A stretch of DNA of 29,073 nucleotides from Candidatus Heimdallarchaeota archaeon B3_Heim (GCA_003144275.1 NJBF01000026.1:1-29073), one strand, 5' to 3'; shown: positions 15,113 to 29,073, counted from the stretch's first letter. The notes: generated by a model not told the origin, from the sequence alone. Numbers and translations: made by a program.

Positions 15113-16138
15113 ATGGAAATCACCAAAGGCTTGAAACAAGAAATAATAGAATGTCTTAGATTAGCACTTCCCTTTATAGGGGAAATTTCTGTCACCAACT
15201 TCCAGCGATTACTTGGAGCCGATACTGAAACATTTAGCTTCTCTTGTGTTAATAACGGTACAGAAATTCCATTAATACTCCGTCTATACAGAAAAGTCTC
15301 CGATCGTGCAGAAAATGAATATACCACATTACAAGCGCTTACTAATGCAGGTATATCAGTTCCTAAACCGTATATATGGAGGAAAACCTCTCAAACATTA
15401 TCACGTAGTTTTTTAATTATGGAAAAAATACCTGGGGAGTTGTTATCAGATTACATTTTGAAAACTGAATCAGACACCCAAAGAATGGAGGGTTTTCAGC
15501 TCTTTATTCAGGAAATGGTTAATGTTCACAAAATTGATTGGAAAATTAACTTCATTGATCAATCCTCTTTTAAAATGCCTGATATTGAGTCCAATCCATA
15601 TATATACATCGATAATCTCATTAAGTATCCCAAGAAGTTGATTAAGCTTCATAGCTTAAATGAATTGAGTCCTCTCATAGATTGGCTTGAGAAGAACAAA
15701 GTTAAGAGTGAAAATTTATCCCTACTGCATGGCGATTATCACATGAATAATATCATAATGACTCCACAAAAAAGATTAGTGGTAATTGATTGGGCCGATA
15801 TAAAAATAGGTGATTTTCGACATGATCTTGTTTTTGCAATTGTAGCCACGTCTTCTGCAGGGGTGGATGTCTCAGACACCTTCACTAACTTGTATCGAAC
15901 TAGTTCTAACAATAAGGTGAACCACATTGATTATTATATGATTTTATCCATTCTACATAATCTTTTACGGTGTTATAGTGCATTACTTGATCCCCAAATC
16001 ACAGGTGAAACTGAGACTACAAAACAAATGTTCTTTGTATCCTATATATCCTACACAAAATACCTGACACAGATTGTAAGAAGAATTACTGGCATCCATC
16101 TAACAACACTTGAGGAAGCACTTGCTACTGGAAAATGA
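15113..16138 (+). CDS. Aminoglycoside phosphotransferase (APH)/choline kinase family protein
   Basis: LILRLY, ENEY, VPKPY, FLIMEKIPG, Brenner motif LLHGDYHMNN and IDW. Confidence 0.9.
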   Translation: MEITKGLKQEIIECLRLALPFIGEISVTNFQRLLGADTETFSFSCVNNGTEIPLILRLYRKVSDRAENEYTTLQALTNAGISVPKPYIWRKTSQTLSRSFLIMEKIPGELLSDYILKTESDTQRMEGFQLFIQEMVNVHKIDWKINFIDQSSFKMPDIESNPYIYIDNLIKYPKKLIKLHSLNELSPLIDWLEKNKVKSENLSLLHGDYHMNNIIMTPQKRLVVIDWADIKIGDFRHDLVFAIVATSSAGVDVSDTFTNLYRTSSNNKVNHIDYYMILSILHNLLRCYSALLDPQITGETETTKQMFFVSYISYTKYLTQIVRRITGIHLTTLEEALATGK

Positions 16139-16153
16139 ACCATATTGATCTGA

Positions 16154-16182
16154 CACTCCCATCACTGTTTATTGAGGGAGTG
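16154..16182 (+). terminator. Stem-loop directly after the APH gene
   Basis: cactccc(a)tca / tga-gggagtg stem starting 16 nt after the stop; no long U tract, so the function is uncertain. Confidence 0.35.
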
Positions 16183-16249
16183 AAGAGATATTGGAGACTT
16201 GAGAGCCGCATTTTAGAAAGAATATCTAAACTACAGAATTATCAATGAA

Positions 16250-16852
16250 GTGACTGAAGGTGATCCGTCAGTCAAATATAATGAATTTTATCTGACACTT
16301 CACAATATGTTTGTCCTAATAGCTGGACTTCCAGGTACAGGGAAGACATTCCTGGCAAAAAACCTTCTTTCCTCGTTTTTTTCTGGATTTATCTATCTCA
16401 GTACTGATGAAGTGAGACGTCTTTACTTTGGTCTATCTGAACACCAATATATGGATTTTAATCAGAAAATCTATTCCCAGGATAAACGAGATATAGTCTA
16501 TAATGTCATAAATTTAATGGTAGACATTTTGCTAGCGCAAGGCTTTTCTGTTGTCGTGGAGGGGACTTTTTATCGTCAAGAGAAAAGGGAAAAGCTGCTT
16601 GATATTTGTAACCGTTTGAGTCATCAATACATAATTATTAAAACGATTTTTCCAGACGAATTGATGGAAGCTCGACTTCAGAATAGAGAGCGCTCCGATA
16701 ATAATGTCAGTGACGCTAGATATCAAATATATTTAGCATTGAAAGAACGTTTCGAGACAATTGTGCAACCACACCTTATTATTGATACTCAACAATCCAT
16801 AACATCTTGTATTGAGGAAGTGAAGAAATACTACGACGAAATTCCATCCTGA
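16250..16852 (+). CDS. P-loop kinase, AAA_33/COG0645 (gluconate kinase-like); likely start ATG 16307
   Basis: Walker A GLPGTGKT, STDEVR, VVVEGTFY, lid RLQNR...SDA. Confidence 0.88.
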   Translation: MTEGDPSVKYNEFYLTLHNMFVLIAGLPGTGKTFLAKNLLSSFFSGFIYLSTDEVRRLYFGLSEHQYMDFNQKIYSQDKRDIVYNVINLMVDILLAQGFSVVVEGTFYRQEKREKLLDICNRLSHQYIIIKTIFPDELMEARLQNRERSDNNVSDARYQIYLALKERFETIVQPHLIIDTQQSITSCIEEVKKYYDEIPS

Positions 16853-16853
16853 A

Positions 16854-17807
16854 ATGCTTTTGAATCCTTCCGCATATGATTACTCCGTGGAAAATGTAGA
16901 ACTACGAGAAACTCATATTTCTTGGGTCTTTCTAAGTGGTGATTTCGCGTACAAGGTGAAAAAACCAGTAAAATTTGGCGATATTCTAGATTTTTCAACC
17001 CTTGATTTGCGAAAGAAATTCTGTGAACGAGAAATTGCGTTAAATTCGAGATTTTCTCCTGATATTTACATAAATACATTTTATATTGATGATATGGGCC
17101 GAATCAATGGTTCAGGTACAATCATCGAGTATGGGGTGAAAATGAAGCGCTTACCTGAAGAATACCTCTTGGTCAACCTCCTAAAGGAAAAAAAGGTCAC
17201 CCTAGAATCCGTATCCAGGATTGCGGAAATTATTGCCACGTTTCATGCAAATACGACCAAAGTTCCCGAATATGGTGATTTAAAATTTATTGGTGAGAAA
17301 TGGGATGAGAATTTTCGTACAACGGCTACTTTCCGTTCTATTGACGAATCTTTCCGAGAAAAAGTTACATGTTTTTTACGAGGTAATCGGGGACTATTTC
17401 AAGAACGAATCAATGCCAATCGGATAACTGATAATCATGGTGATTTTCAATCCCGAAATATCTTCGTACTACCCAATCATGAGGTTCTGATATTTGATTG
17501 TATAGAATTCAGTTCCTTATTACGATATGGAGATGTAGCTGAGGATGTGGGCTTTCTTGCTATGGATTTAGATTTTTTAGATGCAAGAGAATTTTCTAGG
17601 CATTTTGTTGATATGTATGTCAAATTTAGTGGAGATGACTTAATCTTAGAAAACATTTCTTTTTTTAAATCATATCGTGCTTATGTTCGGGGTAAGGTGT
17701 ATGGTTTTCAGGCCTCTATGGAAGTTGATGACGGGAAGAAAGCGGAACTAATAGCGATGTCTGAGAAGTACTATACTCTCGCCTATCAATATTCAGAAAA
17801 CTGGTAG
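16854..17807 (+). CDS. APH-fold phosphotransferase, COG2187-like
   Basis: ETHISWVFL.G..AYKVKKPV.F..LDFSTL..R...C..E..LN.R, HGD, FDCIEF...RYGDVA.D..FL.MDL and YRAYVRGKV. Confidence 0.88.
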   Translation: MLLNPSAYDYSVENVELRETHISWVFLSGDFAYKVKKPVKFGDILDFSTLDLRKKFCEREIALNSRFSPDIYINTFYIDDMGRINGSGTIIEYGVKMKRLPEEYLLVNLLKEKKVTLESVSRIAEIIATFHANTTKVPEYGDLKFIGEKWDENFRTTATFRSIDESFREKVTCFLRGNRGLFQERINANRITDNHGDFQSRNIFVLPNHEVLIFDCIEFSSLLRYGDVAEDVGFLAMDLDFLDAREFSRHFVDMYVKFSGDDLILENISFFKSYRAYVRGKVYGFQASMEVDDGKKAELIAMSEKYYTLAYQYSENW

Positions 17808-18107
17808 ATGGTCTAACCAAGACAATGGCCCCTTCATCCTATCTCATTTTAGGTTAGATTGTGATTAAAATTTGAGTAAGAATTGAGATAGGGGGAACTT
17901 TTCCGTTCTTGTGAAATTATTAATGAATCTGTCTTGATATAGCGTATCGACAGGGTACTACTAAAAGGTTAGATGAATGGATTTTTAATATTAAGTTAAA
18001 CTTAGTTCTTATTCACATTCACACTAAACTTAATCACAATTGAGTGATATTCGGGTCTTTTTTTTGACTCTTATTTCTCACATATTGAATTATATATCGA
18101 TTAATAT

Positions 18108-18827
18108 TTGGTGATATTCCAAAGAAATATGTCATCCAAAAGGATAATGTTTGATATGGATTCTAAATTAGATAAATTATTTGAATCAAAACCTCAACCT
18201 GTCGTTTGGATTGAAGGTATAATTGGATGTGGTAAGACAACACTGACCAAGGCAATTTCTAGAAAGCTTAATTTTCGTGCTATTTATGAACCAGTAAATT
18301 TAGAATTATTAGAAATGTTTTACATGGATCAGGATCGCTGGGCATTTGCCATGCAAATTGATCTACTCCACCGCCGCTATGCATTACAAAAACTGGGTTC
18401 TTTTGAATCTATTACAGGGCAAGGGGTAGTAATTGATAGAGGGCTTCCTGGAGATCGTGTTTTTGCCAAGATGTTATATAAAGCGGGAAAAATGGATCGA
18501 ATCGAATGGGCTATTTACGAACGCGCATATTCGGTTATGACTAACTCTTTGATTCCTCCAAGTGTTATAATATTCATGGAAGTTCCTCCTGATATAGCAC
18601 GAGAACGAATAAGGAACAGAGATCGAAAAGCTGAACGTGGGGATTTAGTTCCACTTGCATATCTTCAGGAATTGGAAAATGGCTATTTAGAACTCTTGTC
18701 AGAAATTGAATCGGCATATCCCGCATGGAGTAGAGGAATGAAAGTGATAAAACTTCCATTTAATACCTCCGATGAATCCGAGGAGTCCATCAATAAAGTG
18801 ATCGGTATAATACAGGACTTAATATAA
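18108..18827 (+). CDS. Deoxynucleoside kinase family protein (likely start ATG 18129 or 18147)
   Basis: IEGIIGCGKTT, YEP, FAMQ, IDR...GDRVF, RIRNRDRKAE lid and YLQEL...Y. Confidence 0.9.
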   Translation: MVIFQRNMSSKRIMFDMDSKLDKLFESKPQPVVWIEGIIGCGKTTLTKAISRKLNFRAIYEPVNLELLEMFYMDQDRWAFAMQIDLLHRRYALQKLGSFESITGQGVVIDRGLPGDRVFAKMLYKAGKMDRIEWAIYERAYSVMTNSLIPPSVIIFMEVPPDIARERIRNRDRKAERGDLVPLAYLQELENGYLELLSEIESAYPAWSRGMKVIKLPFNTSDESEESINKVIGIIQDLI

Positions 18828-19364
18828 ATGGTCCATATTAATATTGAGTTTAAAGCAAGATGCGACAATCCCGAGAGAATTCGTAAGATTCTCTTATCCG
18901 AGAATCCAGTGTTCAAGGGGAAAGATCACCAAATAGATACGTACTTTATTGTAGAGTCTGGACGCTTGAAACTTCGAGAAGGGAATATCGAAAATGCATT
19001 AATCCATTATGAAAGACCGAATGTTGCGACTGCCAAACAATCAACCGTTCTTCTTCATCATCCTGAATCAGATAACACTTCTTCATTGAAAGAAATACTG
19101 ATAAAAACCCTAGGTATTTTAACTGTAGTTGATAAGGAACGTGAGATTTATTTTATTGATAATGTTAAATTTCACATTGATTACGTGAAGAATCTAGGTC
19201 ACTTCATAGAAGTGGAAGCAATCGATAACGATGGGTCAATTGGTACTCAAAAACTTCAGGAACAATGTGATCATTATCAAAAGTTGTTCCAGCTGTCTGC
19301 GGAAGATCTAATTGAAGTATCATATTCAGATTTGATTTCGTTATCTGATAACAAGGTAAGTTAG
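18828..19364 (+). CDS. CYTH-domain protein (class IV adenylate cyclase / triphosphate tunnel metalloenzyme)
   Basis: N-terminal ExExK-like NIEFKA, QIDTYF, RLKLRE, KEREIY, FHID.V..LG.FIEVEA. Confidence 0.92.
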   Translation: MVHINIEFKARCDNPERIRKILLSENPVFKGKDHQIDTYFIVESGRLKLREGNIENALIHYERPNVATAKQSTVLLHHPESDNTSSLKEILIKTLGILTVVDKEREIYFIDNVKFHIDYVKNLGHFIEVEAIDNDGSIGTQKLQEQCDHYQKLFQLSAEDLIEVSYSDLISLSDNKVS

Positions 19365-19369
19365 TTAAT

Positions 19370-19690
19370 ATGCCATCTCTGAAAGAACATCCTCCATTAA
19401 TTGCCTACCAGAAGTATGTAGCTGAATTAGAAAAGGAGAGGGAATTTAAAGACCAATCTGTGGTTGATAAATGCTTATTACTCGGGGAAGAAGTAGGAGA
19501 ATTGTTCAAAGCTGTCCGAAAGAAAGAAGGGTTGAATATTGATCTTAATTCAACCCCCTCCCAAATTTCATATGAATTAGTAGATATTTTCATATTCCTG
19601 TGTGCAATTGCTAATCGTTATGACATCAATTTAGAAGATGCTTTTCGAGAAAAAGAAGAAATAAATAAAAAGCGTCAATGGACCAAATAG
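19370..19690 (+). CDS. MazG-like all-alpha NTP pyrophosphohydrolase
   Basis: LGEEVGELFKAVRK, ELVDIFIFL..IAN...INLE.AF..K...N..R.W. Confidence 0.92.
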   Translation: MPSLKEHPPLIAYQKYVAELEKEREFKDQSVVDKCLLLGEEVGELFKAVRKKEGLNIDLNSTPSQISYELVDIFIFLCAIANRYDINLEDAFREKEEINKKRQWTK

Positions 19691-19893
19691 CGACGGGAAC
19701 GTCGTCAAATCATGCTTTCATACGAGAATTTCTTTATTTTTCATTTATATAGGATTTTCTCCGTTATGGGGGAAAACTACGTTATACAACATAGAAAAAT
19801 GTCGTTTATCGTTGGAAGGAAAGAAATTTCATAGGAAGAGTTGGAAACTTCAGTGGTGTTAGAAATAATTTATTTGGGAGGAGAGTCCTTGAT

Positions 19894-19919
19894 TCCTTGA
19901 GTGAATAAAAACTCAAGGA
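19894..19919. other. 9-8-9 perfect inverted repeat upstream of the integrase (candidate recombination site or SD-sequestering hairpin)
   Basis: tccttgagt-gaataaaa-actcaagga; the right arm overlaps aaggag, which ends 10 nt before ATG 19931. Confidence 0.6.
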
Positions 19920-19930
19920 GATAAGAAAAA

Positions 19931-21364
19931 ATGACCGTTCTGCGAGAATTAAAATCTATAATGGAAGATCCAAACCTAAAGAATAAAGAGAAGAAGAAAA
20001 GAGTGGACGAGCACCTTCTCGCTGAAGACTATATAAAGGATTGGGTAGACTGGAGGGCTGATGCATCGACCTCCAGAGATAAAGACGCCGTCAGGATGAA
20101 CTGCCTTAATATGCTTAGAAGATACCTAATGTTCCTAGTATCCAACGAGGATAATCTGGAACTAACTCTCACGGATCTGAAAGATGAGGCTTTAGAGGAT
20201 GGTATTGGTACTAAAGCTTGGAGGAGAATTCAGCAATACTACAACTGGTCTCTAGGACGTGAGATTACTAGTTATGAGAAAACTAAGAAGAAAACTAAGA
20301 CACTTAGATCAGCTTATCAGAGCGCTCATGTGAATATTCGTGGATTTTACTCTAAAGGAGTTCACGTTCATTTCTCTGCACGATATAAAGGGCCTAGAGA
20401 AGCAACAAAATCATCCTCGAATGTCGTAGAGACCGACAGAAAGCTTAAGCTTATTATTAGAGATAGCGAAGGTAACCGTGTCCTTGACCGCGAAAAAATT
20501 GAGAAATTCTTTGATCTCTTACCTAAACGTGAACAGGTTATCTTTGGTATCATTCTTACTGCAGGAGGGCATGATATTAAGGATGTCCTCCATATTCGAC
20601 TTGGGGATGTTAAAAACCAAGAGAGGTTCTTAGATAATGGGAAGTACTTCATCTTTAAAGGAAACAGGAATAAGGGTGGTGAACCCTTCATCTGTCTTGT
20701 CGCTCGGTGGGCTACTGAACTAATAATTCGATACAAAAATAATAATTGGATAGACGAAGATAGTGACAATGAATTCTTCTTTAAGCCTGCACTTTATGAC
20801 AAGAATAGCGATGGTAATGGGAGAGATAACACAGAAGACATTCCCGCTCTCTCTCCCAAGATAGTTTCCTACAACTTCCGCAAGGCCGCAATTAAGTCAG
20901 GACTAGTAAAAGAAGACAGAAGACGAAAGCAGGGTGAATATAATCAATTGAGACCAAAGAGATTCAGGCACGTCTTTGAGACGTTGATAGAGTACTATGA
21001 GGTGAAGTTCAATTGGCCTAGGAATGTCGCTTATTGCTTTATGGGACACAGCCAAGACGAACATCAAAGATATTCAGAAACCCAACTAGACGAACTACTA
21101 GACTTCTATAAACAAGTAGAGAAGTACTTAACCCTTGATGTCGTTGTCATACGGTCAGGTGAACCAGAAGTCTTGGCAAATATTGTCAGTGGCGAAGTTC
21201 AGACTCTTAGAGGTGAAAATCAAGAATTAAAGACTAGACTGGGTGAATTAGAGACGACTGTGGACGAATTGGTGAGTAACGTCCATAGGTATGAAGAACT
21301 GATTACGGGCACAATGCGTCCAGAAGGCCAACAATCTATACGTGAAGCATTTGAAGAGGAATGA
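19931..21364 (+). CDS. Tyrosine recombinase/integrase family protein with a C-terminal coiled coil
   Basis: Box I-like GGHDIKDVLHIRLGDV, RNK loop, box II KRFRHVFET, FMGHS and Tyr381. Confidence 0.85.
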   Translation: MTVLRELKSIMEDPNLKNKEKKKRVDEHLLAEDYIKDWVDWRADASTSRDKDAVRMNCLNMLRRYLMFLVSNEDNLELTLTDLKDEALEDGIGTKAWRRIQQYYNWSLGREITSYEKTKKKTKTLRSAYQSAHVNIRGFYSKGVHVHFSARYKGPREATKSSSNVVETDRKLKLIIRDSEGNRVLDREKIEKFFDLLPKREQVIFGIILTAGGHDIKDVLHIRLGDVKNQERFLDNGKYFIFKGNRNKGGEPFICLVARWATELIIRYKNNNWIDEDSDNEFFFKPALYDKNSDGNGRDNTEDIPALSPKIVSYNFRKAAIKSGLVKEDRRRKQGEYNQLRPKRFRHVFETLIEYYEVKFNWPRNVAYCFMGHSQDEHQRYSETQLDELLDFYKQVEKYLTLDVVVIRSGEPEVLANIVSGEVQTLRGENQELKTRLGELETTVDELVSNVHRYEELITGTMRPEGQQSIREAFEEE

Positions 21365-21527
21365 TTCTTCCACCATCTTCTCTCTTTTTTAGTTGTATCT
21401 TTATATGTATCTAAGGATGCCCCCGATTTATTAAAAATCTTTAATTGAATTCCTACTTTTCATATAGATTTAAAATTTTAGAAAAATATAAATTTGAATA
21501 CTCATTTCAATTTTCAGGGGACGACTA

Positions 21528-23063
21528 TTGATTACAAAAATATTCATAAAGAACTTTAAGGGATTTGGGGAACCAATACAAGAAATTCCTCTCAATAAGA
21601 TTACTCTAATATTTGGGGCAAATAGTGCAGGTAAAACATCAATCATTCAGCCTCTCCTTCTTCTTAAACAAACGCTTGAAGAAGCAAGTGACCCTCAAAC
21701 CGTTTTACTTCCTAATGGATATATGATCTCATTGGGAAATTATAGAGAATTTGTATTTAAACACGAAACAGATAGAGAAATATTCATTGGTTTTGAAGTA
21801 GATCATAAAGATTATTTAGGGTATCAATTTAATCTAAAAAAAAATATTTTATCTATCTCTGGTTTTAATGGAAGAATTAGTTCCAAAAAAGTAAGAAGAT
21901 TGACTAGAGGAAGAATTAAGAGAGAATATAATTTTTCTGGTAAACGATTAAAGAAAGGAAGCTATACAATAACATTAGATGATATTGAGAATGTTCTTGC
22001 ACAAGAAATCGATAGAACTTTACAGAATTTGTTAGAAGTGGGTTCATTTGAAGAGATCTTGTCTAAAAAGAAATATAGAAATTTAAGGACATATTTCATT
22101 AGAGAAATGGAAAAAAGCGACGAAAAAGATCCCACTGTCTTTATAAATAAGATGAATGATAGATTTCAAGACTTGAAACGACATGTTCAGGATTATGATA
22201 TATTAAAACACTTTACAAAAGAAGTAGTTGCTCTTGAAAACCCTTTACTATTAAAAATCAAAGATACTAGAAGATTTTATGATCTAAGGATAAAATCGGA
22301 CCTAGATAATGGTGAAAATTTCCTTGTAGATTTTATTAGGGAAGAAATTCGTTTTCCATATCTCTACCGTCTTTTAACATCTGTTCACGATATTTTTGCT
22401 AGAACATTACAATCATTAATTTTCATTGGTCCTTTAAGAGAGGAGCCTATTCGAATCTACACATACTCAGGAAATATACCCTCTACTGTTGGTATCGAGG
22501 GAGAATTTACAGCAGAAATGTTATATTATTCACAGACTATTAGAGACTCTATTAATAACAAATTTAAAGAATTAGATATAAAATACCAAATTAATGTTAC
22601 ACCTATTAGTGAACATGAAAATGATATATTTCGTATCAAACTAACTGATCAAATTATTAAAACAGACGTTACTATTACTGATGTTGGTTTTGGCCTAAGT
22701 CAAATCTTACCAATAATAGTTCAATCCTATGCCCTTGAACAAGGGACAATTTTCATTGAACAACCTGAAATACATATTCATCCTAAATTGCAAACCGAGC
22801 TAGCTCAATTGTTTTATGAAAGGATTACAGAAAATCAAAATATTCAATTCATAATTGAAACCCATAGTGAACACATTATATTAAGACTTCAACGATTAAT
22901 TCGAAAAGGATTGCTAAATCCTAGTGATATATCTATATTATATGTTACTAGAGAAAATAAAGGCATCGCATGTAAACAACTGAAATTAAACAACAAAGGT
23001 AATTTTATAGATCATTGGCCTGAAGGCTTTTTCGAAGAAGCGTTTATAGAAAGGTTCGGGTGA
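21528..23063 (+). CDS. ABC-type ATPase (AAA_15/AAA_21) with DUF3696-like C-terminus
   Basis: IKNFKGF, Walker A GANSAGKTS, signature DVGFGLSQILP, Walker B/D-loop IEQPEIHIHP, ETHSEH and terminal DHWPEGFF; TTG start. Confidence 0.92.
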   Translation: MITKIFIKNFKGFGEPIQEIPLNKITLIFGANSAGKTSIIQPLLLLKQTLEEASDPQTVLLPNGYMISLGNYREFVFKHETDREIFIGFEVDHKDYLGYQFNLKKNILSISGFNGRISSKKVRRLTRGRIKREYNFSGKRLKKGSYTITLDDIENVLAQEIDRTLQNLLEVGSFEEILSKKKYRNLRTYFIREMEKSDEKDPTVFINKMNDRFQDLKRHVQDYDILKHFTKEVVALENPLLLKIKDTRRFYDLRIKSDLDNGENFLVDFIREEIRFPYLYRLLTSVHDIFARTLQSLIFIGPLREEPIRIYTYSGNIPSTVGIEGEFTAEMLYYSQTIRDSINNKFKELDIKYQINVTPISEHENDIFRIKLTDQIIKTDVTITDVGFGLSQILPIIVQSYALEQGTIFIEQPEIHIHPKLQTELAQLFYERITENQNIQFIIETHSEHIILRLQRLIRKGLLNPSDISILYVTRENKGIACKQLKLNNKGNFIDHWPEGFFEEAFIERFG

Positions 23064-24073
23064 ATAAGGTGCAAATGATCTTTAATCTATCAATATGTGC
23101 CAGTTGTTTTTATAGTGACAATTCTTTGAAATCAACTTTACAATTCCTACTTAATCAGTTCAATAATTCGCTTCTTTTAAATTTGGGTACGCTAGTCAGT
23201 GAGCTTTTAAATCTATTTAGTTCTATTCTAGTACAAGATACAAAAAAGGATTTTCAAACATTATTATTAGAATACAATAAACGTAATAAAATCATTGAAT
23301 TTCAAATGAATGAAAATAATTCTATCTGTGAGATTAATCAGTTTCTGTCGGAACAGAAAGTTTGGATTTTGTTTTCAGAAGAGCAGAAGCCAGAAAGTAT
23401 TAAATCTAATACTTGTTCACAATGTTTAATAGCCTTGAAAGAGGGTATATTAAATATTGAACACCTAAATTTGAAGTATAACTTACCTCAATCTCAAGAA
23501 TTTCGTTGTTGCACCTCTGATACATGGGATTTATTAAGAACGCAAATCATTGAACCTTTATCGATTGGTAGTTCAAAACTCGAACTTTATGATATTTTTT
23601 TAGGAACTGATTTAGTTTATTTCTCAGAAAACCCAAAGAGTAATCCTTTAACTGATAGTGAGTGGATTTATACAATTCATCGAATTCTTAAAACATTTGA
23701 AGACGTCAGTTTATATAAGGATAAAAAATTTATAGTTCATACTCTTGTTAAATGTGACAAGATAGATAAAGTAGCACAATATGCCAGAGAGATCAAGAGA
23801 ACGTTTTTGAAAACGAATAATATTCAATTGACTTTCAAATTCTATAAATATCAAGGTGATGCTCCTAGACGTTTTACACACGATCGTTATCTTTTTTCAG
23901 AGAATATTGGGATTTCAAGCGGGATAGGATTTGATTTAATTATCCCAGATCGAGACACTATTCGTAGAGAGTCTCAATTTACCGTAATAGGAAATGAAAC
24001 AATTTTAAAGGTCATTAATCAGCATAGAGGGTTAACCAGAAGAGATCGAATTCTTGGAACACTTACAGTTTAA
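23060..24073 (+). CDS. Uncharacterised partner of the ATPase with a C-terminal HDR motif (PLD-nuclease-like, inferred)
   Basis: 4-nt GTGA overlap with the ATPase stop; C-terminal LELYDIFL...FTHDRYLFSENIGISSGIGFDLI. Confidence 0.7.
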   Translation: MNKVQMIFNLSICASCFYSDNSLKSTLQFLLNQFNNSLLLNLGTLVSELLNLFSSILVQDTKKDFQTLLLEYNKRNKIIEFQMNENNSICEINQFLSEQKVWILFSEEQKPESIKSNTCSQCLIALKEGILNIEHLNLKYNLPQSQEFRCCTSDTWDLLRTQIIEPLSIGSSKLELYDIFLGTDLVYFSENPKSNPLTDSEWIYTIHRILKTFEDVSLYKDKKFIVHTLVKCDKIDKVAQYAREIKRTFLKTNNIQLTFKFYKYQGDAPRRFTHDRYLFSENIGISSGIGFDLIIPDRDTIRRESQFTVIGNETILKVINQHRGLTRRDRILGTLTV

Positions 24074-24100
24074 ATATATTAAAAATCTCTAATTGACAAT

Positions 24101-24331
24101 TCACATGCATAATTCTAATGTTCGTCCATTTACGAATAACAATTCCTTCCATTTTTCTTTGATCTTTTTACGTTCATCCTCAAATTGATCGGATAACCGT
24201 TTTAAAAACAATAAACCAAAGATATAATGCTTATAATACGCAGAATCAATACTCTCGCGTAGTATGTCAGCTGATTGTCATAAAAACTTTTCTAATTTGT
24301 CTAATGTCAATTTATCTTTATATTTTTCCTT
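24101..24331 (-). pseudogene. hsdM: 5' fragment of a type I restriction-modification methyltransferase (HsdM N-terminal domain)
   Basis: Hand translation: KEKYKDKLTLDKLEKFL*QSADILRESIDSAYYKHYIFGLLFLKRLSDQFEDERKKIKEKW. Matches the HsdM_N consensus LExxLWxAADILRGxxDxxxYKxYIxxLLFLKRLSD, with TGA at 24278-24280 in place of the conserved Trp. Confidence 0.88.
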
Positions 24332-24342
24332 TTAATTCGAAT

Positions 24343-24618
24343 TTATATAGAACAACAAATCTTTTGTGGATTTCGTTTCGGTTTCCTTGGTATCTTCTTT
24401 TTAACAACATATTTTAGTGCAGGTTGCTTTGGTTGGCAGTTTTCCAAATGATAGCGATAGCGTGTTTTTGTTCTAAAGATTCGAAAACAATCATGACACA
24501 CAATCAATTTGGAGTGGAATTCTGTTATGTGAGCGACAAATTCCTCACGACGAGTGAATCGAATTGGACACCCTTTGGGGCAGTTCACAACAAATGGCAA
24601 TAATGGTGAAAAAGTCAT
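24343..24618 (-). CDS. Double zinc-finger protein (C2H2 plus C2HC) with a basic tail
   Basis: CPKGC...HITEFH and CHDC...HLENC. Confidence 0.8.
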   Translation of the reverse strand: MTFSPLLPFVVNCPKGCPIRFTRREEFVAHITEFHSKLIVCHDCFRIFRTKTRYRYHLENCQPKQPALKYVVKKKIPRKPKRNPQKICCSI

Positions 24619-24942
24619 CTAATCCCATCGGGAGGCGATATAAAGCACACAAATTCCTGTATCAGCGGCATTAACGATCCACAGTTTGTCAAATTTTAGA
24701 TTTAATATCTGCGTTAAATCGCCTGCTACTATAGGAATTGGATTGTTAGTTTTTTCATTAAGAACTATGTCGAAATTTGAATCAGATCGAAGAACTTTCA
24801 GCTCGTTGTACGTATGAACGACTTTTTCAAGATCGAATTCCTCGTTGTTCCTAGACTTGGTTAAATCCAGCGTAATGATCCTATAATGAAGATTTAATCG
24901 CTCTTTTACAGGATTTGCATTTTTTAATGTTTCGCTCATCAT
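24619..24942 (-). CDS. Hypothetical beta-strand-rich protein
   Basis: Alternating hydrophobic strands; SD-like gagg upstream; stop abuts the next ATG. Confidence 0.75.
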   Translation of the reverse strand: MMSETLKNANPVKERLNLHYRIITLDLTKSRNNEEFDLEKVVHTYNELKVLRSDSNFDIVLNEKTNNPIPIVAGDLTQILNLKFDKLWIVNAADTGICVLYIASRWD

Positions 24943-25032
24943 AAAACCTCATTTAAGGTTGGGAGTGGACGGCAGTGAAGAAAACCGTCCAAACCCTGAT
25001 GGATATCGGTGTGATGTTATGAACTATAAGCA

Positions 25033-25389
25033 TTAACTCCATCGGTATTGCTCGGGGTATATCCTACGCAATCGACGTTGGCCTAAACGATTTCGCTGAC
25101 CTGTTAAAGTAGCAGTTTGTTCAACAGGCATAAATTTATCTACTATACCCTGAATTCGGGCTTGAACCAACACTTTTCGTGCATCTATTGACTCTCTAGT
25201 TGGAGGAAATACAGGCATTAGAATTGTCGTTGGAGAGGTTTGACCAACTACTCGACGTCTTTTGAAGAATTGAGCAGCTACATCACCATCGACAGCTACG
25301 TCAGATTCCTCTTCTTCTTCAACTGGTAATTCACCAGTCTGTCTTCTTAGTCGAGTTTTATTTCTTAATTGTAATAATCGACTTGCCAT
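25033..25389 (-). CDS. Hypothetical protein with Arg-rich termini and an acidic tract
   Basis: SD aaggag upstream; RNKTRLRR, EEEEE, FKRRR and RNRLGQRRLRR segments. Confidence 0.75.
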   Translation of the reverse strand: MASRLLQLRNKTRLRRQTGELPVEEEEESDVAVDGDVAAQFFKRRRVVGQTSPTTILMPVFPPTRESIDARKVLVQARIQGIVDKFMPVEQTATLTGQRNRLGQRRLRRIYPEQYRWS

Positions 25390-25424
25390 TATTCCATAAA
25401 CTCCTTTTAATTTGTAATATTCTT

Positions 25425-25577
25425 CTATCCTAATGATCTAAATCTCCTAATTCTAAATCTTTGTCTAAACAATCTCCTACTTCGTATTCGTTGGCCAATC
25501 TGTGGATTGAATCGAGCGGGATGTTGTCGAGGTTCAACAAAATTTGATCCTTTTCTAATACGATCTGTAAATCTCAT
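25425..25577 (-). CDS. 50-aa arginine-rich protamine-like protein (not in ORF track)
   Basis: Hand translation: MRFTDRIRKGSNFVEPRQHPARFNPQIGQRIRSRRLFRQRFRIRRFRSLG*, 15 Arg of 50. Fills the gap between two co-oriented genes; ATG lies 8 nt after the upstream stop. Confidence 0.7.
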   Translation of the reverse strand: MRFTDRIRKGSNFVEPRQHPARFNPQIGQRIRSRRLFRQRFRIRRFRSLG

Positions 25578-25585
25578 TTTAATCA

Positions 25586-25894
25586 CTAAGCTAATATACG
25601 GAAAGCACCACGAACGATACAGTATTCTCTCTCGTCATATTCACCTTCTAACACAATAAGATGATTCATCGCTGGCCCAGGCTCCACTATAATAGTCTCC
25701 TTGATTCCCGATATCAGCGTATCAACCCCACCTTCAATTCTGATAGCTTTTTTTGTCCTCCATCTCCAAATAGGAATTCTTCCAGCACCGAATCCTTTTA
25801 TAAGATAATTTGGTGTTCCTATTCTATGTTTTACATGGATTTGTTTAATTAAGATATCAGGAGGTGAAATAATACTTTCTACCATTACGTTCAC
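25586..25894 (-). CDS. Hypothetical protein of the element
   Basis: Co-oriented ORF in the compact operon; no recognisable motif. Confidence 0.65.
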   Translation of the reverse strand: MNVMVESIISPPDILIKQIHVKHRIGTPNYLIKGFGAGRIPIWRWRTKKAIRIEGGVDTLISGIKETIIVEPGPAMNHLIVLEGEYDEREYCIVRGAFRILA

Positions 25895-25930
25895 TCTTTA
25901 AAACTAAGATAGATTCAAACTACATTAAGC

Positions 25931-26146
25931 TTACTCATGGCCTGCAAGTAATTTCTTGACGATAATGTCCAGTTGACGCTTGATGATGTCCATATCTTGA
26001 TGTATGAACGATTCACGACCGCTTTGTTCAAGATAAAAAACGATAGCTTCTCTAACATATTCACTACGTCTAATGTTCCATTTCTCACAGACTTTATCAA
26101 CCTGTTGTAGAACCTTGTCAGGAAAATAAACGGTAATAGGTTTCAA
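25931..26146 (-). CDS. Ribbon-helix-helix (CopG/Arc-like) transcriptional regulator
   Basis: MKPITVYFPDKVLQQVDKVCEKWNIRRSEYVREAI: alternating beta ribbon, helix A, and the SEYVREAI helix B; TTG start. Confidence 0.9.
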   Translation of the reverse strand: MKPITVYFPDKVLQQVDKVCEKWNIRRSEYVREAIVFYLEQSGRESFIHQDMDIIKRQLDIIVKKLLAGHE

Positions 26147-26288
26147 CTAGCGTCTATCCTAGGATCAGTGTCCACCATAGTTTGATACTCTAACATCTGT
26201 AAATGATTATTATGATTAATTAATGATTCTTTTAGACTCTTTAGGAGGCTGTCATTGGTGTCCACACTTACTAATTTGCTCATAGAAA

Positions 26289-26768
26289 TCACTCTGATTG
26301 TAAAGACATTCCTTTTGCCATTCTTTTTGCCTTAGCAAGTTCTTTTGCAGCTATTTTTTCTTCTACTGTGGGAGGAGCTGGTGGTTCAAAAAATCTGCGT
26401 CGTGGTGGAGGTTGAGGTGTGTCCACTTCTTGACCAGAATTTTGTTGGACAGGAGCTGTTTGAACTTTGAAACTAGACACACGTTGCCTCAAGTTTCTCA
26501 CTAATTGTCCGCTAAGAACAGGATTATTCGGTTCGGGTGCATTAGGTGGTACCATTTGTTGGACAGTGGGACTCAATGGAGGATTCGCGGGCTGATTAAC
26601 CGATAGGCTTGGTTGATTTTCTTGACTTTCAGCGACTACTACTAGTATCTGCGATGGAGACTGTTTGAGATTCTGTACTTTTTTCTGTATCTTAATCATT
26701 TTCTTGGTCAGCTTGTCACTTAAATAATCAAATATTCCGTAATCATCATCTTCTGACATGTTTATCAA
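26289..26768 (-). CDS. Pro/Gln-rich, largely disordered hypothetical protein (start possibly ATG 26759)
   Basis: Composition; 4-nt overlap with the upstream gene stop. Confidence 0.75.
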   Translation of the reverse strand: MINMSEDDDYGIFDYLSDKLTKKMIKIQKKVQNLKQSPSQILVVVAESQENQPSLSVNQPANPPLSPTVQQMVPPNAPEPNNPVLSGQLVRNLRQRVSSFKVQTAPVQQNSGQEVDTPQPPPRRRFFEPPAPPTVEEKIAAKELAKAKRMAKGMSLQSE

Positions 26769-27688
26769 CTCTCCTTAATTATTTGCGGGGAATCTCTTTC
26801 TAATATGGCTAAAATTCCTTGATCACCAGTGCTTGTCACAGATTCTCGTAATTGTTGACGTTGTTCTGCCGTTTGTTTCCTAGCTGCCTTCTTATCTCTA
26901 AAATCTTCAACGATTAAGTCCACGAAGGTATTTACTCCTTTAACCATTGTTCTATCCATTTCTGTCTTAAAATCTGATACATCTTTAGTTATTTCAGTCT
27001 TAAGTTTCTGCATTTCTAGTTTGAAATCCTGTTGAATCTTGATTAATTCAATATCAGTCTTATGAGATGATCTAATTTGAGCTAATTCTTTCTCATGATT
27101 CCTCTTTAACTCATCTTCCATGCGTTTGTGAAGATTTTCTATTTCTCTATCTTTTGCTTTGAGTATATCTTCCCGTTGTCGCTCTTCTTCAAAGAATGCT
27201 CGTTGACTTTCTTGTTCTCGCTCAGGAACACCTAGTCTATCACTAATATTCTTTTGAGCCAATCTTTCTTTCAGGATTGCAGTTTCTCTTTTCAATTCAC
27301 TAATTTCTTGCTCTTCATCTGGTAAAAATTCGGTCTCGATTGGTTTGAGTCGTACCACTGTTGAACCGCTTACCGCTTTGGCTTTTTTCTTAGTCTTAGG
27401 AGCAATTTTAAGCTCATCAGCATAATGCTCACGAAATTCCTGATAATCATGGATGGTATCGTGGCGACTTTTCCCTAACACATGGCCTGATAAAGATTTT
27501 AGTGTATCGAAGCTAGCGTCACACCATGAGCATCCCCACTCTTTTTCAATGGAAGTAGTGGGGTCTGTATCTGGAGGTACTTGGTCTATACCATTTAATT
27601 CACTAGGAGCATGGATGGACGAAATTTTGCTGTCTGTCTGTTCCATCGCTTCCTCCTCATTATTAATTTCTTTTGTCATTAGAATCAT
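26765..27688 (-). CDS. C2H2 zinc-finger plus long coiled-coil protein
   Basis: CSWCDASFDTLKSLSGHVLGKSRH, followed by ~130 aa of E/K/R-rich heptads. Confidence 0.85.
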   Translation of the reverse strand: MILMTKEINNEEEAMEQTDSKISSIHAPSELNGIDQVPPDTDPTTSIEKEWGCSWCDASFDTLKSLSGHVLGKSRHDTIHDYQEFREHYADELKIAPKTKKKAKAVSGSTVVRLKPIETEFLPDEEQEISELKRETAILKERLAQKNISDRLGVPEREQESQRAFFEEERQREDILKAKDREIENLHKRMEDELKRNHEKELAQIRSSHKTDIELIKIQQDFKLEMQKLKTEITKDVSDFKTEMDRTMVKGVNTFVDLIVEDFRDKKAARKQTAEQRQQLRESVTSTGDQGILAILERDSPQIIKES

Positions 27689-28004
27689 CTATTCTCTTAA
27701 TCTTATGTAAGTTCAAGGACTAAATTGTAATATTTCTGGTTGCTTCTCCAGCAAAGCCACACTAAAACAAGTCTTATTCTTAGGTTCTTAGAAATTAATA
27801 GAAGATTTATGGGTTTCTCTTTTCTAAGTGGACACATCAAGATATAATGGACATATACTAGATGGTGTCCAAACATTCAAATAGTATAAGTGTCCTTACC
27901 AAGAAGTAGTAACCAATGAAATGATTATCACAGATAATAGCTATAAGAGAGTGCCGGAACCAGGAAGTCTGTCCAATAAATAGTGACGGACAGCATTCTT
28001 ATAG

Positions 28005-28259
28005 CTACCTGGTTTGATAATCATCTCCTTCGTCTTCTAGTTCACTTAGAATAATACCCCAAAGAGTAGATTCTTTTATCCCATAAAATTCAGCTAGTTC
28101 TTCCGCCGTTTTATGTTCCCTGAAGAATTGATCACGAATACCGATAATTTTAGGCCTAAAGTTTTCGGTAATTGTCGAAGTATTCCCATTATTGGATAGT
28201 GGACAGATATAGTGGACACATACTTCTTTACGCCGCAGGCCCCATGGCCGAACACCCCC
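28005..28259 (-). CDS. Putative small HTH protein with no ATG/GTG/TTG in frame (frameshifted after ATG 28189, or non-canonical start)
   Basis: Stop-to-stop open frame encodes ...NTSTITENFRPKIIGIRDQFFREHKTAEELAEFYGIKESTLWGIILSELEDEGDDYQTR*; KTAEELAEFYGIKESTL is an HTH pattern. Confidence 0.55.
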   Translation of the reverse strand, partial: GGVRPWGLRRKEVCVHYICPLSNNGNTSTITENFRPKIIGIRDQFFREHKTAEELAEFYGIKESTLWGIILSELEDEGDDYQTR

Positions 28260-28330
28260 CTATATAATGCTCGGAAGATAGATATTTTTAGTATTAATTA
28301 TAGGGCAATGCGACTATGGGGCCTTGCGGC
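28232..28330. other. ~100-bp imperfect inverted repeat with GC-rich arms and an AT-rich centre (candidate origin or structured element)
   Basis: gccgca-ggccccat (28232-28245) pairs with atggggccttgcggc (28316-28330); inner ccctata / tataggg pair. Confidence 0.7.
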
Positions 28331-28338
28331 CTGAATTA

Positions 28339-29073
28339 CTAAGAAATAGAATCATCAGCTAATTGGACATATAAATAGTAGGTCTTCCTTGGTTTGTTCT
28401 TTAAGTCGCGGAATGATTCAATTTCTCCCTTCGGATTCAATCTACGCCAAACTTTAAACAAAGGGGTAGTTAGGTATTGTTTGTTTTTATATACTGGTTC
28501 GACATCTCTATCATCACAAATCTGTAAATACACCTCCCAAACGTCATCTATCCACACCTTGTCACTTTTACTTGGAATTAGCTGTTTAGCTAGTTCATCT
28601 ATTGGAGTACTCGATCTAGTCTCAAGTAAATCACGTTTTACTTCATAATCATTATAATCATCAATAAATCCCCTTCGTCTCAATAAACGACTCAATCCCA
28701 GCAAAAAGAGGTTTAATTGGCCGCTCCTTTCTTTTGGGGTGTTAAACTCTGCTAAAATCTTATGTTGAGGTCTATCTTTTGGGGTACCTCTAAATCTATG
28801 ATGAAACGTGCTAACAATAATTCGATCCATCAAAGCTTCATCAAGTTCCATAGGAGGTATCTGGTTGAGATCACAAAATAGTTTGGCATTGTTAATAAAC
28901 TTAAATTGAGCCTTGTATATAGGTCTACCAGTCACAGGATTCCCTCCTGTTAAAGCTTTAAAAATTCCAGAAGGTAAGAGTTTATTTGATCTCCTTTCTC
29001 CCGCAAAATTAGCATTTTTACCATAGAGAGCAGCTATGTGTTTCGCAGAGTCTTGACCCGCAATTTGATCTAA
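28339..29073 (-). CDS. D5/P4-like superfamily 3 primase-helicase, C-terminal part (5' truncated by the window edge)
   Basis: Frame is open to the edge: ...ALYGKNANFAGE...FKALTGGNPVTGRPIYKAQFKFINNAKLFCDLNQIP...ALMDRIIVSTF (Walker B, motif B', motif C, Arg finger), then a winged-helix-like tail. Confidence 0.92.
   Translation of the reverse strand, partial: LDQIAGQDSAKHIAALYGKNANFAGERRSNKLLPSGIFKALTGGNPVTGRPIYKAQFKFINNAKLFCDLNQIPPMELDEALMDRIIVSTFHHRFRGTPKDRPQHKILAEFNTPKERSGQLNLFLLGLSRLLRRRGFIDDYNDYEVKRDLLETRSSTPIDELAKQLIPSKSDKVWIDDVWEVYLQICDDRDVEPVYKNKQYLTTPLFKVWRRLNPKGEIESFRDLKNKPRKTYYLYVQLADDSIS

Follow-up and report, generated by a model that had tools for sequence, protein, structure and literature searches.

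A 20-kb integrated element at an intergenic palindrome in a Hodarchaeales archaeon, and a left-end sequence that recurs within its genus

The stretch of DNA analysed here, called the window throughout, comprises positions 1-29073 (29,073 nt) of the 67,362-nt contig C50 in the metagenome-assembled genome (3.95 Mb, 103 contigs) of Candidatus Heimdallarchaeota archaeon B3_Heim, whose host is a Hodarchaeales lineage within the Asgard archaea. The right-hand part of the window carries an integrase gene, a pair of cargo genes and a tight minus-strand block (24343-29073) of open reading frames (ORFs) of 91, 107, 118, 53, 102, 71, 159 and 307 aa, followed by a helicase gene. This layout is as given in an earlier note, which was made from the window alone and read these genes as an integrated virus- or plasmid-like mobile genetic element. 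Comparison with related genomes places them in the left half of a ~20.36-kb insertion, which is probably a plasmid-like cryptic integrated element, without recognised virion genes, that entered one Hodarchaeales lineage by site-specific recombination.

Asgard archaea are the closest prokaryotic relatives of eukaryotes, and to our knowledge the ends of Asgard mobile elements have seldom been mapped exactly. The comparison sets were 22 genomes of the genus, 82 of the class (61 outside the genus) and 399 other Asgard genomes. The source genome is labelled G000 and its sister genome G013; other labels between G002 and G075 denote relatives.

Ends of the insertion and the empty site

The extent of the insertion was established by BLAST. 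In three genomes of the same genus, and in one environmental contig, C50 position 19718 is joined directly to ~40076. The alignment of G013 (97% identity) covers C50 16153-19729 and then 40058-53905, with a 30-nt overlap on the subject; that of G003 (78% identity) jumps from 19718 to 40294, and that of G018 (76% identity) from 19674 to 40258. The environmental contig, 1013 nt from a marine-sediment metagenome with a flank 97% identical to ours, continues past 19718 with TACGACAATCGATTTC, the empty form of the site. Past 19718, this contig, G013 and G003 read TACGACAATC..., the empty attB. Sequence 3' of C50 40058 is kept in all three relatives, and is therefore chromosome outside the element.

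The join in G013 is GTCGTCAAA-TCATGC-TTTTACGAC, a perfect palindrome of two 9-nt arms about a 6-nt spacer (9-6-9), starting 10 nt past the stop codon (19690) of a small MazG-like gene; G003 has the same hairpin with two changes. The ends of the insertion in G000, attL and attR (Table 1), are palindrome-type sites of 24-26 nt. Both are hybrids derived from the intact hairpin, and their chromosome-derived parts meet within a TTT at 19716-18 and 40076-78. A precise empty site and hybrid att sites at both ends, the marks of a mobile genetic element integrated by site-specific recombination, are thus both present, and the earlier proposal of a mobile element with an integrase at one end is borne out by the empty sites in three relatives.

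The window itself stops at a 10-N scaffold gap (C50 29074-29083) inside the helicase gene. The sequences either side of the gap share a 42-nt overlap that is 93% identical (3 mismatches), as in an unmerged scaffold join. The two contig ends are probably from slightly different strains, and the helicase sequence over the join would then be a chimera of variants. Position 29073, the right-hand limit given in the earlier note, is this gap and not an end of the element; the right end lies at C50 40061-40084, and the element is real but twice as long as was stated. Rightward extension, suggested there as the way to find attR, did locate it, although not as the direct repeat that had been envisaged: a direct-repeat search for att sequences over 19-32 kb gave only chance-level pairs, and the ends came from the genome comparison. 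No further att-like site lies within the insertion, even with 4-5 mismatches permitted, and the right end of the island (39.4-40.1 kb) has no repeat elsewhere in the genus.

The remark that no tRNA gene marks the target also held. ARAGORN found none in the window or in the whole of the 67-kb C50, and Rfam had no match at 19600-19960.

Table 1. Features of the insertion and of one related unit. Coordinates are window positions, or positions on C50 where so marked.
Feature	Position	Strand	Details
attL core	19701-19726	+	GTCGTCAAA-TCATGC-TTTCATACGAG; chromosome/element junction between 19718 and 19719
Conserved left end, putative P' arm of attP	19716-19835	+	Contains TTTATATA box; recurrent in genus
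Divergent tyrosine recombinase, 477 aa, C-terminal coiled coil	19931-21364	+	Homologues and predicted fold
AAA_15/AAA_21/DUF3696 ABC-type ATPase, defence type (cargo)	21528-23063	+	Pfam; PADLOC NsnB 8.5e-63, HEC-03B, PDC-M55A
Partner of ATPase, 337 aa (cargo)	23060-24073	+	Start overlaps ATPase stop
C2H2 zinc-finger protein, 91 aa	24343-24618	-	Pfam zf-C2H2, E 1.5e-6
Backbone ORF, 107 aa	24619-24942	-	No family match
Backbone ORF, 118 aa, Arg-rich ends, acidic stretch	25033-25389	-	Counterpart by position and sequence at the end of L080
Very basic ORF, 53 aa, R/F-rich C-terminus	25425-25586	-	Counterpart at L080 4608-4862 with the same RFR-rich tail
Backbone ORF, 102 aa	25586-25894	-	41-43% identical to 97-aa ORF of L080
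Ribbon-helix-helix (CopG/Arc-like) regulator, 71 aa	25931-26146	-	Pfam RHH_3, 1.1e-5; PHROG transcriptional repressor; 41% to L080 ORF
Pro/Gln-rich ORF, 159 aa	26289-26768	-	Positional L080 counterpart only (219 aa), similarity undetectable
307-aa protein, C2H2-like zinc motif, long coiled coil	26765-27688	-	One homologue (P0010)
P4/D5-type SF3 helicase, C-terminal half	28339-29073	-	Continues past gap to C50 29914; ~507 aa in total
Helicase, N-terminal half	C50 29084-29914	-
Zn-ribbon ORF, 87 aa	C50 29922-30185	-
Lipase-like hydrolase, membrane-anchored	C50 30577-31350	-
Secreted protein, 965 aa	C50 32190-35087	-
WD40-CHAT-like protein, 1385 aa	C50 35372-39529	+
ORF, 132 aa	C50 39577-39975	+
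attR	C50 40061-40084 (outside window)		GTCGTAAAA-TAATAT-TTTTACGAC; chromosome again from ~40076
Empty attB			GTCGTCAAATCATGCTTTTACGAC
Predicted attP circle junction	40075 joined to 19719		Element right end ...GTCGTAAAATAATAT joined to TTTCATACGAGAATTTC
Borders of the unit at G007:C52			ATCGTCAAA-TTTTAC-TCTCGTACGAG plus tail on one side; ATCGTAAAA-ATAGAT-TTTGGTGAC on the other

The recombinase

By predicted fold and homology, the 477-aa protein at the left edge is a tyrosine recombinase. The protein itself matches no Pfam family even at E 5, and nothing in PHROG, NCBIfam or the sequences of the PDB. Its relatives number only seven among 5.8 billion proteins (23-30% identity), all of which carry PF00589. 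Across the alignment of the eight sequences, K248, RPKRFR (K343, R346), GH373 and Y381 are invariant, and K248, K343-x-x-R346, H373 and Y381 are spaced like the K, HxxR, H/W and Y positions of the family, with Lys replacing His at K343. A Foldseek search with an AlphaFold2 model returned a top 30 made up nearly entirely of tyrosine recombinases, led by XerA (5hxy; E 1.2e-4, probability 1.0) and including Cre, XerH, lambda Int and IntI; the catalytic core of lambda Int (1ae9) gave a TMt of 0.55, and IntI (2a3v) ranked in the middle of the fold matches.

Members of this integrase family are sparse in Bathyarchaeia, Nitrososphaeria, Thorarchaeota and Hadesarchaea, and alignment-derived patterns found none in IMG/VR. 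Only one other genome of the 82 in the class has the family: G004 has two genes, ~32% identical and in unrelated contexts. Around these nearest homologues (G004:C298 and C70) the synteny amounts to the single gene in common, and there are no hairpins. The start codon of our integrase lies ~205-210 nt inside the left end. The SSV-type ('suicidal') arrangement, in which the att site is part of the int gene and integration splits it, was considered and rejected: all 477 codons of our int ORF are in one piece, and attL is 205 nt upstream of the start codon.

Helicase, backbone and cargo

The gene interrupted by the scaffold gap encodes a P4/D5-type superfamily 3 (SF3) helicase. Its N-terminal half matches D5_N (PF08706) with 31.4 bits against a cut-off of 22.4 and has the Walker A sequence GKCGTGKT. 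Positions 2-112 of TIGR01613, the C-terminal domain of P4-family primases, match the N-terminal half and positions 117-303 the C-terminal half. Since the coverage of the profile is complementary over the gap, the two pieces are one helicase of ~507 aa; that each half falls below the TIGR01613 cut-off of 108.7 bits is a consequence of the gene being split by the gap. No archaeo-eukaryotic primase (AEP) or Toprim domain was found in it with Pfam or NCBIfam, and only ~88 residues precede D5_N, which leaves no primase domain. Thus, of the SF3 primase-helicase named in the earlier note, the helicase stands and the primase part does not.

Helicase relatives are plentiful (3718 by HMMER among 1.8 billion representative proteins), the best non-self match being 41% identical. 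Relatives with at most 35% identity occur in 10 of the 399 other Asgard genomes. The locus of the nearest homologue in the genus, G017:C9, has that single gene in common with ours and no hairpins. No longer proteins homologous to the C-terminal half were found, and a scan of IMG/VR with the helicase gave nothing.

Among 5.8 billion proteins the 307-aa protein has one homologue, P0010 (47% identity), on a 5.1-kb environmental contig, L080, and its CxxC...HxxxxxxH motif is kept there. This contig is syntenic with our backbone over a block of seven genes: a different, DUF3987-like helicase is followed by the 307-aa homologue, a Pro-rich ORF, the ribbon-helix-helix (RHH) gene, the 102-aa homologue, a strongly basic ORF and, last, one whose N-terminus is acidic and then basic. 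As judged from this shared order and sequence likeness, the backbone is a small but real family of mobile-element genes. No true homologue of the 307-aa protein was found in the 399 other Asgard genomes, and none among GenBank phages by tblastn; IMG/VR and GenBank phage and virus records hold nothing for the backbone past a generic likeness to P4-type helicases. With the whole block also missing from the same site in three relatives, the backbone genes are not conserved genes of the chromosome, in line with the reading of the earlier note. Of its four predicted DNA-binding proteins, the RHH and C2H2 zinc-finger proteins were confirmed and the C2H2-like motif of the 307-aa protein proved to be conserved, whereas the helix-turn-helix protein matched no family. 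For the 102-aa ORF, the model built for the ESM Atlas search had a pLDDT of only 0.36 and no usable match was obtained. A search for tandem repeats or iterons as marks of an origin gave nothing convincing, and no CRISPR-spacer-like matches to the island were found elsewhere in G000.

Between integrase and backbone lies the two-gene cargo. The ATPase matches defence-type profiles strongly, while its 337-aa partner matches no Pfam, PHROG or PADLOC model. Six other genomes of the genus have DUF3696 ATPase genes with ~70% DNA identity to ours (G007:C27, G009:C1:4330884-4332589, G014:C382, G012:C342, G017:C119 and G015:C1), and there the 337-aa partner is lacking at the DNA level. Since the similarity stops at the stop codon of the ATPase, the downstream partner appears to have been swapped between genomes.

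Beyond the gap, the extended contig supplied the N-terminal half of the helicase, the Zn-ribbon, lipase-like and surface proteins, and the WD40-CHAT-like protein. The capsid genes that, if present, were expected past the right edge are not among them, and these genes gave no conjugation match either; over the whole 20 kb, Pfam and PHROGs detected no capsid, portal, terminase or other virion hallmark. The 1385-aa protein, which the element carries as cargo, is anchored in the membrane at its N-terminus and continues with 14 WD40 repeats, Ig-like segments and a further transmembrane segment; its caspase/CHAT-like domain (SGHG...LRACSS) is cytoplasmic.

A recurrent left end and palindromic sites in the genus

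A stretch of 60-115 nt that begins at the left junction, on the element side, has copies elsewhere in the genus with 77-95% identity, at no fewer than 12 loci. The common sequence is TTTCATACGAGAAnnTCTTTATTTTTCATTTATATAGG..., extended in some copies as ...ATGTCGGGAAACTACGTTATCCAGCTTAGAAAAATTTCGTTTA. In front of every copy stand a CGTMAAA half-site and a spacer that varies, and the similarity ends precisely at the start of the C50 insertion. A sequence model of this left end found 15 strong copies in 7 of the 22 genomes of the genus and none elsewhere in the class. The same stretch is present in four metagenomes from different studies, each with 1-6 separate contigs that differ in their upstream sequences; several share a downstream continuation. 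The adjoining genes vary and include SIS-domain, histidine kinase, beta-lactamase-fold, S15 peptidase, cupin, Eco57I-type restriction-modification (RM) and luciferase-like genes. A structured RNA in the tail was considered and rejected: RNAalifold gave -1.5 kcal/mol with one compensatory pair, and Rfam gave no match.

The palindrome itself, as the pattern GTCGTMAAA-N6-TTTKACGAC with at most one mismatch, occurs in 20 of the 21 other genomes of the genus, at 2-9 copies each, and in 1 of the 61 class genomes outside it; the reversed pattern, as a control, had two matches within the genus. Seven of the eight sites in G000 are intergenic, and the reversed G000 sequence gives none. The hairpin site is specific to the genus.

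Some of these hairpins are conserved between species. The hairpin GTCGCCAAACAAGACTTTGACGAC stands at an orthologous-looking intergenic place, with the same spacer, in G000, G009, G012 and G013; in G018 and G073 it differs by one base. The hairpins with spacer CAAGAC are at G000:C94:8224-8247 (there inside a 183-aa ORF), G013:C30:3877, G012:C271:10986, G009:C1:3452205, G073:C32:10374 and G018:C114:48874. Their retention with the same spacer at such positions in six species suggests either a function at the level of the host or strong stability of empty sites.

Several smaller units have the anatomy of the C50 insertion. One, at G007:C52, is 0.96 kb long and holds one SRPBCC gene; G002, G014 and G075 have the hairpin alone between the same flanks, and other genomes have inserts of 0.7-12 kb at this locus. 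The SRPBCC cassette gene is found at other loci in five further genomes. At G012:C235 its copy has 92% identity and stops at a hairpin of attR type whose spacer differs; the left-end motif was not found there. Further units are a 0.65-kb one with a broken PNPOx-like gene at G011:C14 and two motif-bounded units in tandem at G004:C357, while at G000:C11 the motif borders a strain-specific region that holds an RM gene. At G004:C357 (L037) 1531-1560 the bulged arm stands on the left, as CTTCGTATGAAA-GAACTA-TTTGACGAAG, followed by the usual conserved tail, which indicates that the two arm types can swap sides.

Taken together, left ends at 15 loci that bound integrase-less one-gene cassettes with empty sites of their own suggest a shared cassette-moving system. 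Not every locus is so simple. The arrangements at the hairpins of G013:C104, G013:C145 and G000:C76 are mosaic and could not be reduced to simple insertions. A region of ~17 kb at G000:C76:29497-46450 is missing from G013 (C104), with flanks 91-97% identical; ~0.7 kb further on is an att-type hairpin (C76:47156-47179), at which G000 and G013 diverge again. None of the small motif-bearing contigs showed the terminal overlap expected of a circle.

Mechanism and weighing of explanations

A scheme for the insertion can be proposed from these features. Int dimers most likely bind the 9-nt inverted arms GTCGTMAAA, ~6 nt apart. Strands would be exchanged at the TTT where the spacer meets the right arm in the intergenic hairpin 10 nt past the MazG-like gene, leaving hybrid sites at both ends; we infer both the part played by this recombinase and the exact cleavage points. 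The 60-115-nt left end would serve as an accessory (arm-type) part of attP. An episomal phase, with replication of the excised element, would be served by the P4/D5-type helicase, the Zn-ribbon gene and the RHH regulator. Since the left end is common to integrase-less cassettes with the same sites, the recombinase may also move such cassettes in trans: the conserved tail, as the accessory part of attP, would keep integrase-less units mobilisable in the manner of cis-mobilisable elements (CIMEs).

Several observations weigh against this account. The spacers of attL (TCATGC) and attR (TAATAT) differ, and classical tyrosine recombination needs identical overlap regions. The attR spacers also differ between two copies of one cassette. 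Either spacer heterology is tolerated, as in recombination of the Tn916, CTnDOT or integron type, or only one strand pair might be exchanged and the junction resolved by replication. The Arg-I position (TG-x-R) is His in our integrase and Ala in its homologues, with the invariant R200 and R246 as alternative candidates. The structural model is moderate (pLDDT 64), with TM of 0.27-0.44 in full-length matches. With this Arg-I gap, and with no Pfam match of its own, the catalytic competence of the protein is no more than presumptive. The integrase family occurs in G000 and G004 only, against seven genomes of the genus for the left-end motif, so that another recombinase could serve these sites. 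Lastly, the right-hand 10 kb resembles ordinary cellular cargo, with lipase paralogues genus-wide, and may be a separate addition.

This last point leads to a composite origin, which we regard as possible but somewhat doubtful. Only the part from the integrase to the Zn-ribbon gene (~19.7-30.4 kb) would then be autonomous, and the right 10 kb would be a cargo module or older cassette accreted at the hairpin. The two halves hold genes of different types, and their GC is slightly different (0.350 for the left and 0.334 for the right, with flanks at 0.364-0.368). A paralogue of the lipase-like gene, 61% identical, lies on C32, homologues of 65-76% DNA identity are scattered over the genus, and the tandem units of G004:C357 provide a precedent. 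However, neither an att-like hairpin nor a left-end motif lies between the halves at 4-5 mismatches, and in all three relatives both halves are missing at once, the junction being single and clean.

The recurrence of the hairpins raises a further question, namely whether they belong to the host. They could be terminator-like, or bound by a chromosomal Xer-type recombinase, such that a host enzyme makes the insertions and the recombinase of the element is irrelevant or has another target. The orthologous hairpins with identical spacers (such as GTCGCCAAACAAGACTTTGACGAC) fit this well, as do the dif-like 9-6-9 layout and the best fold match of the integrase to XerA. As the motif is found far more widely than the integrase family, a host enzyme is a serious rival, even if an unlikely one. 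A dif site is single, whereas these genomes have at least 2-9 sites with variable spacers. The integrase gene is 210 nt from attL, where the integrase of an element is usually found, and the element-side arm TTTCATACGAG with its 50-100-nt tail travels with the inserts and not with the chromosome.

We consider it quite unlikely that the insertion is a provirus or virus satellite in which the small basic, zinc-finger and uncharacterised proteins act in the virion or hijack packaging. Its helicase is of the P4 family (TIGR01613), the defence pair adjoins the integrase, and the putative satellite NMV2S likewise has an Arc-like regulator and a helicase-primase (bioRxiv 10.64898/2026.08.12.739948). 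Structural proteins could hide among the two very basic small ORFs and five family-less ORFs, and since five backbone ORFs cannot be interpreted, this reading keeps some weight. On the other hand, Pfam and PHROGs found no capsid, portal, terminase or membrane virion protein in the 20 kb, IMG/VR holds no relative, the GenBank viral matches are to the generic helicase only, no helper virus was identified, and G000 has no spacer-like match.

An ancestral block, lost by deletion from the relatives, is very improbable: the polarity of presence and absence rests on parsimony over four genomes, but the absence is precise in three genomes at two levels of divergence and in an environmental population, two genomes have an intact hairpin at the join where the occupied genome has two hybrid half-sites, an integrase stands at the edge, and the content is otherwise not found in the genus.

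Thus, entry of a plasmid-like element by site-specific recombination remains the preferred explanation for the C50 insertion. A wider proposal, which we make tentatively and with more doubt than confidence, is that the genus has its own form of cassette exchange. The intergenic 9-6-9 palindromes would be landing pads for units of 0.65-20 kb, each with a TTTCATACGAG arm and a 50-100-nt tail with a TATA-like box. Exchange at the edge of the spacer would tolerate heterology; the 20-kb element would be autonomous, and one-gene cassettes would be moved in trans. Under this same proposal the candidates for such movement are the SRPBCC, PNPOx-like, RM, membrane-protein and luciferase-like cassettes.

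Chromosomal neighbourhood and significance

To the left of the element, window positions 15113-19690 carry on one strand an APH-type kinase, an AAA_33/zeta-toxin-like kinase, a second APH-like gene, a deoxynucleoside kinase (with a weak PADLOC match to VakA), a CYTH gene and the small MazG. This gene set resembles nucleotide-depletion or modification defence loci. The part compared, 16153-19729, is present in G013, and G003 and G018 share it from 18156 onward, so that it is chromosomal.

Knowledge of attL, attR and attB at base level for a Hodarchaeales element gives a pair of substrates that can be synthesized for a very divergent tyrosine recombinase of archaea, and possibly a tool for site-specific integration in a group without a genetic system. 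Island finders based on tRNA genes would miss elements sited at hairpins. What is new here is the genus-specific hairpin site and the left end shared at cassette borders. If the left end and the palindromes do form one system, it would explain how single genes for defence, RM and small enzymes are shuffled between chromosomal sites, and the archaeal lineage nearest to eukaryotes would have a system like integrons or pdif modules but built from different parts.

Comparison with known systems

Among elements of Asgard hosts, HeimV1 has a tyrosine integrase and integrates beside a tRNA-Gly gene (Wu et al. 2022, PMC8813620), and HodV1/2 are head-tailed viruses with HK97-fold capsids (PMC13700489). 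Our element shares with these and the aloposons (PMC8813620) an Asgard host, and with HeimV1 also integration and a tyrosine integrase. It differs from HeimV1 in its hairpin target, and it has no match in viral collections. NMV2S, a putative Lokiarchaeial satellite, combines an Arc-like regulator, a helicase-primase plus a nuclease resembling Cas4 on a small, high-coverage circle whose 4-mer is 15.2 kb (bioRxiv 10.64898/2026.08.12.739948). Like NMV2S and the P4-like phage satellites, the C50 element has an integrase, a P4-family SF3 helicase, an Arc/RHH regulator, an antiviral slot by the integrase and no capsid genes. Unlike them it showed no helper virus, no cos/pac and no capsid-redirecting genes; it has 10 kb of surface cargo, and the likeness is only at the level of the helicase superfamily.

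The att sites recall XerA/dif, XerH/difH and Cre/loxP, in which inverted arms likewise surround a spacer of ~6 nt, and XerA, Cre and XerH are the best fold matches of the integrase. The differences are the many sites per genome, their variable spacers, and the integration of foreign DNA rather than resolution of dimers. The integrase here is also set apart by a long additional region at the N-terminus and a coiled coil at the C-terminus, and its first catalytic Arg is missing from the canonical position.

For the smaller units, the systems to compare are integron cassettes (attC x attI, moved by IntI, and known also from archaea), the pdif modules of Acinetobacter plasmids, and CIMEs. Here as there, short imperfect palindromes bound recombinase-less units that occur at varied loci and in tandem, with crossover at the edge of the site and tolerated spacer heterology. 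An integron comprises IntI, attI and Pc with an array of attC sites. There is no such platform in our case and no array beside the integrase, which matches no IntI profile. The sites are 24-nt 9-6-9 palindromes as opposed to 57-141 nt, a 60-115-nt tail with a TATA-like box is added, and the strong copies number 15 in 22 genomes.

The closest parallel is with the cryptic integrated elements (CIEs) of archaea, into which an integrase, a replication helicase, a regulator and defence cargo, with an intergenic target and no virion or conjugation genes, fit well. Those of Thaumarchaeota have a median size of 17 kb, and of 68 thaumarchaeal integrated elements 29 use intergenic or protein-gene targets, 15 of them intergenic (Krupovic et al. 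2019, PMC6563490); non-tRNA targets are also listed in a review (PMC8371274). The target is thus indeed not a tRNA gene, though less unusual than the earlier note implied. Like the thaumarchaeal CIEs (PMC6563490), ours has a tyrosine integrase, a near-median size, a helicase, defence or restriction cargo, an intergenic target and no viral or conjugative hallmarks, and Nitrososphaeria and Bathyarchaeia genomes are among the nearest relatives of its integrase. Unlike them, it has a Hodarchaeales host, a helicase without their usual AEP primase domain, an att that is a 24-nt palindrome in place of a direct repeat, attP and attB being identical only in the TTT core, and an element-side arm common to integrase-less cassettes. 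The suggestion of a possibly undescribed Asgard family fits the backbone, which was not found in the 399 other Asgard genomes, IMG/VR or phage records, but not for the kind of element: it is a cryptic integrated element of a type already described, with an unusual att system.

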